DNA of 6,412 bases from a virus (lineage: Duplodnaviria > Heunggongvirae > Uroviricota > Caudoviricetes). Both the position numbers and the translations under genes were made by a program. Each line of letters begins with the position of its first letter. The stretch's first letter is position 1. The DNA is taken from the IMG/VR virus record IMGVR_UViG_2690316210_000006, one strand, 5' to 3'. This document shows positions 32 through 6,412 of this stretch, piece after piece. Below the pieces are notes generated by a model. The model had not been told where the DNA came from. It searched no databases and saw only the letters and a list, made by a program, of their open reading frames with translations.

Positions 32-358
32 TCACTGGCGCTGACACTTCATCACCTCCGGACGTAAATCACCATCCTTTGGTGCATTCAGAAACGCGTT
101 CAGTGTCCCCGGTGCATCAGTCGGTGCCACATCAATATCCCCGACACGGGTTGGCTGCCAGCCGTTACAGTGAAGCGCAACCTCGTAATACCCCGGCTCA
201 GCCTCAATCACATAAGCACCGTTATTGTCCGTCACGCAAGTGGCAACAACGTGTGCCACAACGGTCGGACTGGTTCTTCTGGCCCGCAGTTCAATCGCAC
301 AATTTACGACAGGTTTACCCGCCCCATCTTTCAGTACACCTGAAATCTTTACTGCCAT
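32..358 (-). CDS. Side-tail-fibre (Stf) N-terminal-domain-like protein, 108 aa, ending at a TGA 31 nt from the window edge; possibly a truncated stf remnant
   Basis: Minus-strand ORF; from the internal Met the product begins MAVKISGVLKDGAGKPV..., matching the recalled N-terminus of lambda Stf, with PGTLN.FL and RPEV motifs also conserved. ATG at 356-358 is preceded by GGGGTGAAT (SD-like, ~5 nt spacing). The longer ORF-track start at 400 would overlap a terminator-like hairpin. Position after lom matches lambda order J-lom-stf. Confidence 0.55.
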   Translation of the reverse strand: MAVKISGVLKDGAGKPVVNCAIELRARRTSPTVVAHVVATCVTDNNGAYVIEAEPGYYEVALHCNGWQPTRVGDIDVAPTDAPGTLNAFLNAPKDGDLRPEVMKCQRQ

Positions 359-1088: not shown

Positions 1089-2522
1089 TCAGCTAATCGT
1101 GATGCCTGCAGTGGCTTTCTTCATCACCACAACCAGCAAATCGCTGATACTTGCTGTGGGATACCAGCCATTTACCAGCCATGCCGATACAGAAAACTCC
1201 AGCGTCATGTGACCGTGACCGGCAGGCATATCAATAACACCCGTATATATCAGCGTATTATCCAGGGTCGTTCGGTTATAAATTTCAGCACCGTTTTTCT
1301 TCACTATCAGGCGGCATGACGAATAAATATTGTTATTCTTCCGCTCATGTTTAGCACCGCGAAACGCCACCGCGGGAATAACAATTTGCCGATCAAACGG
1401 CTGATCGTCATAAACCCTGACGGTAATGGTCCCTGATGGCCACCTCTCCGGTGCCCGGGAGTCCCGTGGGAAAGGTTTGCCCACTGTTTTAACGAGATCG
1501 CCTTCAATCTGGTTCGCGGACAATTTTCCCAGAACCCGACAGTTCTTATTAATCGTGACGTTGTTGAGCGTCCCGGAGTTCGCGTTCACGTTACCGCTGA
1601 TATCGGCATTTTTCGCCGTCAGCCGCCCGTCCGGTGTCAGGGAAAATGCCGGAGGATTACCGCCGCTGGTAATGGTCGGAGCCGTCAGGCATTTCAGGAA
1701 CACGTCGTTCATGAATATCTGATCGCCCTGACCAACAAACATCGGCTTTGTGTTGCCATTCGCAGGATTAATCATCGCAATCCTGTCTGCCGCCAGCAGC
1801 ACCTGACTCTGCATTCCTGCTGGCGTATTCTCAATACCGGCACCGATACCCGCAATATAAAGGCGTCCGTCCTTCATCTGTTGCAGCTTCACAGCCCACA
1901 TGCTGTTCAGGTTATTATTTGTATCAACCTGAACTTTCTGTATCTGCTGGATTGCAGCACTCTGATTTTCCAGTTTTTTATTGACGGTTTGCGTGATTTC
2001 ATTGCTGACATTCGTAATGGACGTCCTGATTTCAGTCAGGTCCGGCGCAAGCTGACCGTTATCAATCTGCGTCCACAACTCCTTGCCGAGATGCGTTTTA
2101 TTGATCAACCCTTTATAAAAATTCAGATAACCTTCTGCATCATCGCTCGCCCGACCGATGGCCTCCACAAATGCCGATTTGCCAACGGTGTTCACACTGC
2201 GAACGTAAAAATAATAATCATGGCCCGGCCTGATATTGATACTGGCGGCTATCCAGTACAGCGCCGTGCCAAGATAGCGTGCTGTGGTTTCAACCTGCCT
2301 GATATCCGCAATCCGCTTTTCCGAGAACCAGAACTCAAACTGTACCGTCGGATCATAAACCGCAAGATGCGGCGTGGCGGTTATCTGAAAATAGCCCGGC
2401 GTCAGCTCAATCCGCGACAGCGCTGCCGGTGCGGCAATCCGGAACGATACCGACGCCGGATCGCCCTGCTGCCCCCACGCATTTACTGCCCGGACTGTCA
2501 GCCTGTAGTTCCCCAGCGCCAG
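1089..2522 (-). CDS. J: Host-specificity / tail-tip protein J, C-terminal ~477 codons (allele 1), 5'-truncated at the ambiguous base 2523
   Basis: The minus-strand frame reads [32 protein letters not shown]...[12 protein letters not shown]...[25 protein letters not shown]... to ...[10 protein letters not shown] then TGA (1089-1091), collinear with the recalled lambda J C-terminal region. The ORF-track start at 2195 is an in-frame GTG (Val in J), not a real start. Confidence 0.85.
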
Positions 2523-2523
2523 N

Positions 2524-2919
2524 GGTCAGCACATCGTGCGTTTTCCCCTTGTTGTCAGTTACGCGGAGATAATCCCCGGAGAAAGTCGACACACGGCTGT
2601 AAGCCACACCCGCCATCGAATACGCGCTGAACCAGCGGTTACGCACGGAATCTTCATGCCAGCGGGTATCGCTGTAGTGCGTTTTTTGCTCATCCTCAGC
2701 ATTGGCATAACTGAAGGACGTAATCAGCCCCAGCGCGTCCGTAAACTCATAACGGTATTTCACGTTAATCCCGTTCAGATTATCGCTGCCGGGAGCGTTC
2801 GTACGGGCATGAAGATACCCCGCGCTCAGTGTGGACTGATGTTCAGACGCCCATGCAGGCGCACCGGATACGGACAGACAGATGGCTGCGGACAAAATGA
2901 CTGCACAAACTTTACGCAT
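2524..2919 (-). CDS. lom: Lom-family OMP, second allele, N-terminal fragment only (truncated at ambiguous base 2523), with a 42-bp in-frame deletion relative to copy 1
   Basis: ATG at 2917-2919 with the same SD context as copy 1; product MRKVCAVILSAAICLSVSGAPAWASEHQ...; aligns to copy 1 positions 584-1021 apart from a 14-codon deletion and scattered substitutions. The frame then runs across N2523 into out-of-frame J sequence. Confidence 0.75.
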
Positions 2920-2940
2920 AATTACCTCTCGCTTTTCTGC

Positions 2941-2968
2941 AATAAAAAAGGCGCCATTTCTGGCGCCC
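2941..2968 (-). terminator. Putative intrinsic terminator between J and lom (copy 2)
   Basis: Minus strand: GGCGCC-AGAAAT-GGCGCC (plus-strand 2950-2967) followed by TTTTTTATT. Same position as the copy-1 terminator, with a compensatory stem change. Confidence 0.6.
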
Positions 2969-2986
2969 GTATATGGGTTATAAAAT

Positions 2987-4249
2987 TCAGCTGATACTGA
3001 TGCCTGCGGTGGCTTTCTTCATCACCACAACCAGCAAATCGCTGATACTTGCTGTGGGATACCAGTTATTCACCAGCCATGCTGACACCGAAAACTCCAG
3101 CGTCATGTGGCCGCGACCAGCTGGCATATCAATAACACCACTGTAAATCAGCGTATTATCCAGCGCGGTACGGTTATAAATTTCAGCACCGTTTTTCCGT
3201 ACTATCAGGCGGCATGACGAATAAATATCGTTATTCTCCCGCTCATGTTTAGCGCCGCTGAATGCCACCGCCGGAATAACAATCTGCCGGTCAAACGGCT
3301 GATCGTCATAAACCCTGACGGTGATGGTCCCTGATGGCCACCGTTCCGGTGCACGGGAGTCCCGGGGGAAAGCTTTGCCCACTGTTTTAACGAGATCGCC
3401 TTCAATCTGGTTGGCGGACAATTTTCCCAGAACCCGACAGTTCTCGTTAATCGTGACGTTGTTGAGCGTCCCGGAGTTCGCATTCACGTTACCGCTGATA
3501 TCGGCATTTTTCGCCGTCAGCCGCCCGTCCGGTGTCAGGGAAAATGCCGGAGGATTACCGCCGCTGGTAATGGTCGGAGCCGTCAGGCATTTCAGGAACA
3601 CGTCGTTCATGAATATCTGATCGCCCTGACCAACAAACATCGGCTTTGTGTTGCCATTCGCAGGATTAATCATCGCAATCCGGTCAGCAGCCAGAAGCAC
3701 CTGACTCTGCATACCTGCTGGCGTATTCTCAATACCGGCTCCGATACCCGCAATATAAAGGCGTCCGTCCTTCATCTGCTGCAGTTTCACGGCCCACATG
3801 CTGTTCAGGTTATTATTTGTATCAACCTGAACTTTCTGTATCTGCTGGATTGCCGCACTCTGGTCTTCCAGTTTTTTATTGACGGTCTGCGTGATTTCAT
3901 TGCTGACATTCGTAATGGACGTCCTGATTTCAGCCAGGTCCGGCGCAAGCTGACCGTTATCAATCTGCGTCCACAACTCCTGGGCCAGATGTGTTTTCCC
4001 GATTTCTCCTTTGAAAAAATCCAGGTAACCTTCCGCATCATCGCTCGCCCGACCGACAGCCTCCACGAATGCCGATTTGCCAACGGTGTTCACACTGCGG
4101 ATATAAAAGTAATAATCATGGCCCGGTTTGATATTGATACTGGCGGCTATCCAGTACAGCGCCGTACCAAGATAGCGGGCTGTGGTTTCAACCTGCCTGA
4201 TATCGGTAATCCGCTTTTCCGAGAACCAGAACTCAAACTGTACCGTCGG
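2987..4249 (-). CDS. J: Host-specificity protein J, C-terminal 420 codons (allele 2), from PTVQFEFW... to stop; joined upstream to another J segment at ambiguous base 4250
   Basis: Continuous minus-strand frame [28 protein letters not shown]...[32 protein letters not shown]...[10 protein letters not shown] with TGA at 2987-2989. About 95% amino-acid identity to allele 1, with many synonymous nucleotide differences. Confidence 0.85.
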
Positions 4250-4250
4250 N

Positions 4251-4969
4251 GGTGTCAGGGAAAATGCCGGAGGATTACCGCCGCTGGTAATGGTCGGAGC
4301 CGTCAGGCATTTCAGGAACACGTCGTTCATGAATATCTGATCGCCCTGACCAACAAACATCGGCTTTGTGTTGCCATTCGCAGGATTAATCATCGCAATC
4401 CTGTCTGCCGCCAGCAGCACCTGACTCTGCATTCCTGCTGGCGTATTCTCAATACCGGCACCGATACCCGCAATATAAAGGCGTCCGTCCTTCATCTGTT
4501 GCAGCTTCACAGCCCACATGCTGTTCAGGTTATTATTTGTATCAACCTGAACTTTCTGTATCTGCTGGATTGCAGCACTCTGATTTTCCAGTTTTTTATT
4601 GACGGTTTGCGTGATTTCATTGCTGACATTCGTAATGGACGTCCTGATTTCAGTCAGGTCCGGCGCAAGCTGACCGTTATCAATCTGCGTCCACAACTCC
4701 TTGCCGAGATGCGTTTTATTGATCAACCCTTTATAAAAATTCAGATAACCTTCTGCATCATCGCTCGCCCGACCGATGGCCTCCACAAATGCCGATTTGC
4801 CAACGGTGTTCACACTGCGAACGTAAAAGTAATAATCATGGCCCGGTTTGATATTGATACTGGCGGCTATCCAGTACAGCGCCGTGCCAAGATAGCGTGC
4901 TGTGGTTTCAACCTGCCTGATATCCGCAATCCGCTTTTCCGAGAACCAGAACTCAAACTGTACCGTCGG
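4251..4969 (-). CDS. J: Host-specificity protein J internal segment (third copy, 719 bp, PTVQFEFW... to ...[10 protein letters not shown]), allele-1-like, bounded by N4250 and the N-run
   Basis: Same reading frame as the J copy downstream; the sequence matches 1633-2351 almost exactly and 3531-4249 at ~95%. Forms the N-terminal part of the 608-aa ORF-track entry 2987..4813. Confidence 0.8.
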
Positions 4970-5152
4970 NNNNNNNNNNNNNNNNNNNNNNNNNNNNNNN
5001 NNNNNNNNNNNNNNNNNNNNNNNNNNNNNNNNNNNNNNNNNNNNNNNNNNNNNNNNNNNNNNNNNNNNNNNNNNNNNNNNNNNNNNNNNNNNNNNNNNNN
5101 NNNNNNNNNNNNNNNNNNNNNNNNNNNNNNNNNNNNNNNNNNNNNNNNNNNN
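4970..5152. other. Run of 183 ambiguous bases (assembly gap or masked sequence) inside the J reading frame
   Basis: Directly visible as n characters. Its length is close to the ~185 nt of J coding sequence expected between the flanks (STARTTET upstream, PTVQFEFW downstream). Confidence 1.
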
Positions 5153-6412
5153 GTGGTTTCCGTCGTCCGGGCCGTGCTGACCAGTCGCTCACTGCCGTCG
5201 TCCGCTGTTACGGTCAGACGGAGCAGGAAGCTCACGCCCTTCACCACCTTCGGCGTGTCCCAGCGCGCCAGCACCTGATATTCCCCGCTGTCTGCAGTGA
5301 CTTCGGCGGTCAGGTGCTGCACTGCTGGCGGCGTGACACCATTCACCGTGCCGCTCTGGTCACCGTCAAAGTGCGCCCCGTTATCCACGATGGCTTCTTT
5401 CTCCGGTACATGCTGCACGGCGGTGATGGCATACGTGCCGTCATCGTTCTCACGGATACTCACGCAGCGGAACAGGCGCTGGCGCAGCGTCGGCAGCTTC
5501 AGCCCCCACACGCTGTATTCTGCAACGCCGTCAGGAACACGGCTCACTTTCACCTTCACGCCGTCGGTGACGGACTGGACCTCCACGCTGACCGGATTAC
5601 CCTGACCGTCAACCAGGCTTATCAGCGTGGTACCGGAGGATGGCAGCGTGATTTCACGGTCGAGCGTCAGCGTCCGGGTCTGGCTGTTCACCGCCAGCAC
5701 GCGCCCGCCGGTGCTGATACCCGCATAGTCATCATCGCAGATTTCAATGACATCCCCCGGTACATGGCGAAGCCCTTCCGCACCCACGCTGAAGTCCACG
5801 GTCTGCGTTTCCAGCAGTTCCGTTTTAATCAGCCACAGCCCGGCGCGGTGCGCCTGCCCCCGGCTGGTACAGCCAAAGGCATCCATCTTCGTGACGTTAC
5901 GACCGTAACGGNACAAGCTCTGTCGCCGTCTCCCAGCCGTTATCCGGGTCAATCCAGTTCACCTCAACGGCATTATGACGGTCCTTCAGGGCACTGAAGC
6001 TGTAGCGGAACGGCGCGCCATCATCCGGCATCACCACATTACTGCGGTTATAGGCCCACACCTTATCCGACTGTCGGTCCTGCACGAACGTCAGCGTCTG
6101 CCCGTTCCATACCGGCATACAGCGCATCGCCGAGCAGAAATCACTGAGAACATCCCACGCCTTGCGCTGTGTGGTCAGGTAGGCATTACAGGTGATGCGC
6201 GGCTCCGTGCCACCAAAGCCATCCGGCACCGACTGGTCGCAATTCTGGCCGATGACATACAGCGCCCATTTGTCCACATCCGCCGCACCGAGACGCTTCC
6301 CCATGCCGTAGCGCGGATGGGTCAGCATATCCCACAGACACCAGGCCATGTTGTTGCTGTATGCCGGTTTTAGCGTTCCGTCCCAGATACCGCTGTATTG
6401 CCGCGTCTGCGG
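5153..6412 (-). CDS. J: Host-specificity protein J, central region (5'-partial at window edge), with a frame break at ambiguous base 5912
   Basis: Minus-strand translation gives ...MAWCLWDMLTHPRYGMGKRLGAADVDKWALYVIGQNCDQSVPDGFGGTEPRITCNAYL...NAVEVNWIDPDNGWETATEL, then after N5912 in another frame RYGRNVTKMDAFGCTSRGQAHRAGLWLIKTELLETQTVDFSVGAEGLRHVPGDVIEICDDDYAG...LVSTARTTET, collinear with recalled lambda J. Confidence 0.9.

Follow-up and report, generated by a model that had tools for sequence, protein, structure and literature searches.

The question raised by this locus is whether a phage whose J protein ends in a receptor-binding domain (RBD) unlike that of lambda, and which seems to carry this domain in two differing copies, uses another receptor than lambda and is diversifying its host range. 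The window, that is the whole stretch of 6,412 nt analysed here, had been read in this way in a first-pass annotation. The account that we consider very probable as a whole is that the locus is the J tip module of a lambdoid prophage, which would bind a porin by homology with solved relatives, and that the two alleles come from separate prophages whose contigs were joined.

Layout of the window

According to the ORF list, all genes of the window lie on the minus strand. It is split into five segments by single Ns at 2523, 4250 and 5912 and by 183 consecutive Ns at 4970-5152, and the following features were assigned:

1-2522 (S1), 2524-4249 (S2), 4251-4969 (S3), 5153-5911 (S4) and 5913-6412 (S5): the five segments, bounded by Ns
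32..358, minus strand: N-terminal domain of stf (side tail fibre, MAVKISG...), ORF ending after 108 aa; Pfam PF08400 (phage_tail_N), 126 bits
422..1021, minus strand: lom (Ail/Lom outer-membrane beta-barrel protein), 199 aa; Pfam PF06316, about 428-429 bits, full length
1089..2522, minus strand: C-terminal 477 codons of J in S1, with the end of Ig_J, Ig_J_second, Phage_Tail_Tip and Ig_GpJ_C; cut by the N at 2523
1089..1634, minus strand: last 181 codons and stop of J, allele 1 (the region under study), where the central straight fibre ends and the Ig-like RBD follows
about 1092-1481, minus strand: Ig_GpJ_C match in allele 1 (Pfam PF12421), residues 348-477 of the 477-aa fragment
2523, no strand: single N, contig join, where J of S1 meets the interior of a second lom
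2524..2919, minus strand: partial second lom in S2, beginning inside the gene and 42 nt shorter than lom of S1 (blastn)
2987..4249, minus strand: C-terminal 420 codons and stop of J in S2, allele 2; RBD part at 2987-3530
4250, no strand: single N, contig join
4251..4969, minus strand: third copy of the J fibre segment (S3), equal to S1 1633-2351 with 3 mismatches and with no RBD attached
4970..5152, no strand: run of 183 Ns (gap or masked stretch), close in length to the absent J segment (S1 2352-2522 plus about 16 nt)
5153..6412, minus strand: middle of J, with the Phage-tail_3 and Ig_J domains, on two contigs that meet at the N at 5912; Pfam and collinear mapping

In S1, lom lies directly downstream of J, as it does in lambda. 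The J part of this segment is 98% identical at the DNA level to gpJ in complete E. coli genomes. The matching genomes are annotated in the order gpJ, Ail/Lom and tail fibre N-terminal domain, and the counterpart of the stf ORF is labelled in them "prophage tail fiber N-terminal domain-containing protein". Pfam search of the five translated segments gave the order Ig_J - Ig_J_second - Phage_Tail_Tip - Ig_GpJ_C, then lom and stf, in which Phage_Tail_Tip (110 bits) and Ig_J_second (128 bits) stand in the same order as in lambda.

The C-terminal region of J is a lambda-type receptor-binding domain

The first-pass annotation had put the last ~180 residues of J at 1089-1632, which is correct within 2 nt: on the minus strand, the stop codon of allele 1 occupies 1089-1091, the terminal residues ...AGITIS occupy 1092-1109, and the P of PDGRL occupies 1632-1634. 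The further description of a lambda-like initial part followed by divergence also holds, for the first 40 aligned residues are 85-87% identical to lambda J, while the remaining 148 are 40-43% identical. The alignment with lambda J is unbroken across all 188 residues and has a single 1-residue indel, so the divergence is a drop in identity between proteins that are homologous throughout, not a swap for an unrelated domain.

Using phmmer against PDB sequences, all 188 residues were aligned with A8 gpJ713 (E = 2.6e-75) and lambda gpJ (E = 3.5e-52), and both matches are far above chance. The extreme C-terminus matches Ig_GpJ_C (PF12421) with 126.4 bits against a cut-off of 26.2 and covers profile positions 2-135 of 135, which bears out the earlier naming of the region as the J receptor-binding domain. 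An AF2 model, for which 37 natural sequences were the input, has a mean pLDDT of 78 (above 90 across most of residues 70-170) and eight main strands. Foldseek with this model returned 9wca, 9wcb, 8xck and 8xcj at E = 1e-17 to 1e-20 (TM 0.66-0.67), while the next-best match reached only E = 7.5e-5. These four entries are A8 gpJ713 in the closed state (9wca), A8 gpJ713 in the open state with EDL933 OmpC (9wcb), lambda gpJ713 in the closed state (8xck) and lambda gpJ713 with LamB (8xcj); three OmpC chains were found in 9wcb by phmmer with K-12 OmpC as query. In summary, the region is the standard Ig_GpJ_C receptor-binding domain of a lambda-type J, not a new domain.

The domain type is common and has been described before

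About the distribution of this RBD, 3,350 of 5,426 complete E. coli genomes contain a match (megablast, match covering at least 80% of the 544-nt query), and the number of J copies per genome has a median of two and a maximum of 11. Allele 1 is the rarer one, with 99.6% identity in 8 genomes, one of which is an O121 strain. When genome contigs were scanned for exact matches to a 65-mer of allele 1, two related loci with 96-97% identity came up. The RBD of allele 2 (2987-3530) is 100% identical in phage 204576 and in prophages of many complete genomes, including the type strain ATCC 11775.

In the phage collection, allele 1 has 90-93% DNA identity to J of vB_EcoS-640R1, PhiR47_1, PhiR46_1, PhiR55_1, PhiR5_1 and VT1-Sakai, as well as to J of PPompW phages, several long-tailed Stx2a phages and Lambda_2G7b. 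At the protein level, tblastn matched J of Stx2a_WGPS2 (91.5%) and PhiR49_2 (88%). With the last 153 residues as query, tblastn splits the lambdoid J tips into this type (88-94%), phage 21/A8 (about 60-63%), 434/WGPS6 (about 40%) and lambda (about 40%). Over the last 148 residues, the identity to the window is 93-97% for VT1-Sakai, 67-68% for phage 21, 64% for A8, 43% for 434 and 40-43% for lambda.

The same RBD type is present in VT1-Sakai (Sp15), PPompW, Stx2a_WGPS2, Lambda_2G7b, the PhiR46/47/49/55 phages and vB_EcoS-640R1, and in prophages of most E. coli genomes. For 2G7b and VT1-Sakai, the two phages for which it was computed, the amino acid identity to the window alleles is 94-97%, with the 2G7b RBD in this range for both alleles, and the two loci, when inspected, had the same lom and stf downstream. 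Phages of this type differ from the window by few substitutions, mostly in residues 105-110, 147-149 and 160-163. For Lambda_2G7b and lambda_2H10, J was reported to match lambda at more than 97% identity over 982 residues but at only 40-60% over the last ~150, and the host ranges are distinct (Andrews and Fields, bioRxiv 2020.06.25.171868). Thus the J-tip divergence has already been published for this very RBD type (2G7b), and the feature is a known and very common member of a known family.

Proposed working of the tip

The region consists of the last beta-prism turns of the fibre and, after them, an Ig-like beta-sandwich of about 130-150 residues. How such a tip would work we infer from its homology with the solved complexes of lambda gpJ-LamB and A8 gpJ-OmpC, at an RBD identity of 64-67% or lower. 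Three copies of this RBD would form the fibre tip. Four "bottom" loops would enter a trimeric outer-membrane porin at its extracellular mouth, and the binding would push the three RBDs apart and so trigger tail opening. For lambda, an Ig-like RBD with bottom loops L1-L4 in the porin mouth has been reported, and the spreading of the RBDs starts the opening of the tail (PMC11101478).

In the AF2 model, the loops alternate between both ends of the sandwich. The loops at 61-74, 104-109, 131-134 and 161-172 (188-residue numbering) align with lambda 1012, 1048/1049, 1077 and 1107. In a study of 1,207 natural J homologues, residues 960-1132 of J (the "specificity region") showed disproportionate variation and behaved as an exchangeable module, with hot spots of indels and variability at 1012, 1048/1049, 1077/1078 and 1107, and lambda 1012 and 1107 are the two residues needed for the laboratory switch to OmpF (Maddamsetti et al. 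2018, PMC6646904). From this match to the hot spots of natural J proteins, we infer that the four loops of the window type are the "bottom" loops.

OmpC and LamB as candidate receptors

The reading that this phage may use a receptor other than LamB is plausible from sequence. The comparison with J proteins of known receptor, as had been proposed, gave no near identity to a J of proven LamB specificity (40-43% to lambda and 67-68% to phage 21 in the RBD), and the closest solved relative is the OmpC-bound one (9wcb). In the searched literature, which included PhiR (ECOR), 2G7b, PPompW/WGPS2, EHEC (enterohaemorrhagic E. coli) phages, BASEL collections and a 2026 receptor-prediction preprint, a receptor was assigned to none of the phages with this RBD type. 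The two foremost candidates are OmpC, with a tentative preference, and LamB, as the less probable of the two, and the remainder falls to other or mixed receptors.

Three groups of J proteins with defined receptors were compared with the window. The lambda gpJ RBD (8XCJ/8XCK; LamB) shares with it the Ig_GpJ_C family, the position at the end of J, the J-lom-stf context, an alignment from end to end, the preceding 40 fibre residues (about 85%) and an equal length in three of the four hot-spot loops. It differs in the low identity over the 148-residue RBD, and the window has a one-residue deletion in the loop aligned to D1107.

The A8 gpJ chimera (Brodel et al., Nature 2024; 9WCA/9WCB; OmpC) is the best PDB match by both sequence and fold, and its C-terminal strand is almost identical. 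Its RBD comes from natural E. coli prophage J proteins, with identical RBDs in P0053 and P0054. However, the RBD identity is 64%, and in A8 the loop L1 is 4 residues shorter and L2 is 5 residues longer than in the window. Phage 21 J (LamB; OmpC and OmpF after laboratory evolution) is the closest natural phage with a defined receptor and has the same C-terminal strand as the window, while its L1 and L2 differ in length from the window in the same way as those of A8. Finally, the 434/phi330-type J (OmpC) has the same family and architecture, but its RBD is 43% identical and its L1 and L2 loops are longer.

According to published experiments, A8 is a lambda gpJ chimera with a natural prophage C-terminus that delivers DNA into lamB deletion cells via OmpC (PMC11338833). 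Both chimeras made from natural prophage J C-termini, A8 and 1A2, use OmpC with different ranges of OmpC variants, and 1A2 functions with EDL933 OmpC but not with K-12 OmpC (PMC11338833). For phage 21, the native receptor is LamB, to which OmpC is added by one J mutation and OmpF by further ones (PMC11336670). The phage phi330, with a 434-type J, uses OmpC (PMC12502783).

In the RBD, A8 and phage 21 share 82% identity, and the window type is about equally far from both. The phage 21/A8 subfamily straddles the boundary between LamB and OmpC, phage 21 being a LamB user. As an OmpC binder and a LamB binder are about equally distant and phage 21 switches by one mutation, the receptor is not callable by homology. 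Moreover, two lines of homology point apart: the lengths of L1-L3 in the window type are those of lambda, with phage 21 and A8 both lacking 4 residues in L1 and having 5 extra residues in L2, while the overall identity is nearer to phage 21 and A8.

That this RBD type binds OmpC, unlike lambda, with its polymorphic loop residues tracking the variable loops of E. coli OmpC, is the reading we put forward tentatively, at rather less than even confidence. It would fit with the closest solved structure being A8 gpJ713 with EDL933 OmpC, with the OmpC use of both reported lambda gpJ chimeras with natural prophage J C-termini and their differing variant ranges, with the ability of long-tailed EHEC phages to use OmpC (phi330) and with the placement of allele differences in putative contact loops. 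However, the RBD is no nearer to A8 (64%) than to the LamB-using phage 21 (67%), its L1 and L2 lengths are unlike those of A8 and equal to those of lambda, and phi330/434-type RBDs are just 43% identical.

The type may still bind LamB like lambda and phage 21, in which case the divergence would reflect drift and arms-race turnover on the same receptor; we regard this as possible but unlikely. Phage 21 natively uses LamB although its RBD is 49% identical to that of lambda, so LamB use spans very divergent RBDs, and the window type keeps the lambda loop lengths at three of four hot spots as well as the WPSGT motif of L1. Against it stand the identities themselves (40% to lambda, 67% to phage 21) and the single mutation that moves phage 21 to OmpC, which indicates that a divergence of 33% could easily change the receptor.

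Besides the two, the type might read OmpC in an allele-specific manner (like 1A2) or read another porin, with residues 105-110, 147-149 and 160-163 setting which porin variants can be reached and with co-resident prophages differing from each other; this idea is speculative, and we would not expect it to be right.

Two other comparisons were dropped. The GenBank hosts of PhiR phages (ECOR13 or E. coli C) might be taken to mean that the type cannot infect K-12, but the SNIPE study used its laboratory test strain for plating PhiR47.1 and PhiR55.1. Gifsy-1 J (OmpC) was rejected as a comparator, its C-terminus being of an unrelated type that is 18% identical to the lambda C-terminal region.

Differences between the two alleles

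The first-pass annotation counted about 11 differences between the two copies in this region, and there are exactly 11 amino acid changes in the 188 C-terminal residues (allele 1 to allele 2): K37E, P61A, R99S, K106E, N109D, K119R, T130A, T138S, H147R, G163N and T186S. In the 421 shared codons, 50 synonymous and 23 non-synonymous codon differences were found. The rates by the Nei-Gojobori method are as follows:

Last 181 codons: dS 0.28, dN 0.034, dN/dS 0.12
240 codons upstream (non-receptor J): dS 0.20, dN 0.027, dN/dS 0.13

By pairwise dN/dS, the receptor-binding part has no excess of amino acid change over the upstream J. The copies are old lineages under purifying selection, and their divergence is mostly synonymous.

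In order to locate the variable sites of the type, 29 unique sequences were compared; they are cluster representatives with ragged N-terminal ends, not independent events. The most variable sites of the RBD are 105-110, 147-149 and 160-163, which align with lambda 1048-1053, 1090-1092 and 1103-1107. Four of the 11 allele differences (106, 109, 147 and 163) are on these sites and align with lambda 1049, 1052, 1090 and 1107, and the mean entropy is 1.03 bits at the 11 differing sites versus 0.34 bits at all sites. For lambda, hot spots of specificity have been published at 1048/1049 and 1107, the latter of which is needed for OmpF use (PMC6646904). It is therefore plausible that contact loops have diversified locally within the type, as has been published for the family, and the loop polymorphisms may tune the binding to porin variants.

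The coincidence of these four differences with the most polymorphic sites and with published hot spots is also what speaks for the stronger claim, that positive selection for a host-range shift drove the 11 differences. We consider this claim improbable. The pairwise dN/dS of 0.12 is the same as in non-receptor J and was discarded as a sign of diversifying selection, since it carries no such signal; 7 of the 11 changes either are conservative or lie away from the putative contact loops, and selection is not localisable from one pair. Of the earlier reading of two alleles in host-range diversification, the part that stands is the placement of four differences on polymorphic hot-spot sites, while the dN/dS ratio and the N-joined contigs on which the two copies lie speak against the rest.

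The two J copies lie on joined contigs

Copy 2 is in register with copy 1 at an offset of 1898 nt; the 42-nt shortfall of lom in S2 is seen as the spacing of the repeat families D3/D4, 1898 versus 1940. Compared with single-copy J-lom-stf loci of Shigella flexneri CP182556, E. coli CP178302 and ATCC 11775, S1 is collinear with all three, and in each of them (3 of 3) S4 starts 16 nt past the end of S1. Consistently, the Ig_J profile of Pfam has reached position 66 where S4 ends and is at position 73 where S1 begins. S2 begins within lom, its end and that of S3 both correspond to S1 2351, and the start of S3 corresponds to S1 1633, exactly where the RBD ends. Such shared boundaries are as expected of nodes of an assembly graph. 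In addition, the N at 5912 replaces about 21 nt, which indicates that the single Ns are contig joins, not ambiguous bases.

Both halves of the 2523 junction occur within about 1.3 kb in 8 of 5,426 complete genomes. The one of these 8 that was inspected did not contain the tandem arrangement; it has a J with an internal deletion and the normal order of lom then J, by which a real tandem was ruled out for that genome.

That the tandem is real, a duplicated cassette of lom and J C-terminus serving tip swapping by recombination, is suggested by the direct repeats within 4 kb (the 1633-2351 segment three times, the RBD twice) and by the known modular movement of the J specificity region (PMC6646904), but it is extremely improbable, as each junction is an N, the copy ends coincide at coordinates typical of assembly-graph nodes, S1 runs into S4 in three normal genomes, the inspected complete genome has a deleted J instead, and a recent duplication is excluded by the dS of 0.28 that separates the copies. 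The tandem of "alleles" is an artefact of scaffolding, in which contigs broken at repeats were concatenated with N spacers.

Several lambdoid prophages per strain are usual in E. coli. From the N joins and the collinearity, the two copies most likely belong to separate prophages within a single polylysogenic strain. In this strain, the lambdoid prophages with this J type evidently number at least two, and probably three.

Meaning of the finding

The finding itself matters little, for the divergence of the last ~150 residues of J, their modular exchange and the link to the receptor are textbook knowledge that was recently solved structurally, and thousands of genomes have this variant of the J tip annotated. 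The seeming tandem of J C-termini warns that the window is a chain of repeat-broken contigs and does not represent gene order. As to the family, no other J tip is as common in E. coli prophages, long-tailed Stx phages among them. In sequence it is intermediate between a binder of OmpC and a binder of LamB, and knowing its receptor would be useful for predicting the spread of Stx phages and for engineering delivery particles.

Composition of the window and its J, lom and stf sequences

Single Ns at 2523, 4250 and 5912 and a run of 183 Ns at 4970-5152 link the five contigs that make up the window, and its gene order across these N joins is not real. The last part (5153-6412), which covers the middle of the tip attachment protein gene J, is the continuation of the first contig, S1 (1-2522), while S2 (2524-4249) and S3 (4251-4969) are interposed between them. 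At 5912, about 21 nt are replaced by N, and the J reading frame is shifted. The interposed contigs include these copies:

2524-2919, second copy of lom, lacking 42 nt around 2625-2634
4251-4969, third copy of the J fibre segment, matching 1633-2351 of S1

Only 3 nt separate the third J copy from S1 1633-2351 (two neighbouring bases changed from GG to AA, plus a single T to C), and this copy is either the J of a third prophage or consensus noise. In the second lom copy, 42 nt (14 codons, in frame) are absent compared with the lom of S1 and that of the type strain ATCC 11775, and a 10-nt direct repeat (CGCTGAACCA) flanks the deletion. Since the best complete-genome matches listed (100% identical) all keep the 42 nt, the loss is either an assembly slip or a deletion that is rare.

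Near the window start, in the region 32-400, an stf-like ORF beginning with MAVKISG has only 108 residues and ends at position 32, so either stf is truncated or the sequence origin changes at that point. The best genome matches to S1 start at position 47, leaving 1-46 unaligned.

J receptor-binding domains in prophages

Most database matches come from draft assemblies and comprise just a short, incomplete C-terminus of J, showing that J genes routinely break contigs. In VT1-Sakai (L004, AP000400; 3001-6473), the J carrying the receptor-binding domain (RBD) type of the window is annotated as broken into two CDS by a mutation, and the tip of this prophage is therefore probably non-functional.

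The RBDs of two E. coli prophage fragments (P0053 and P0054) are 100% identical to that of A8, an engineered OmpC-binding chimera of lambda gpJ, and that of another E. coli prophage protein (P0047) is 100% identical to the RBD of LamB-binding phage 21. Natural E. coli prophage proteins carry the RBDs of both the A8 chimera and phage 21.
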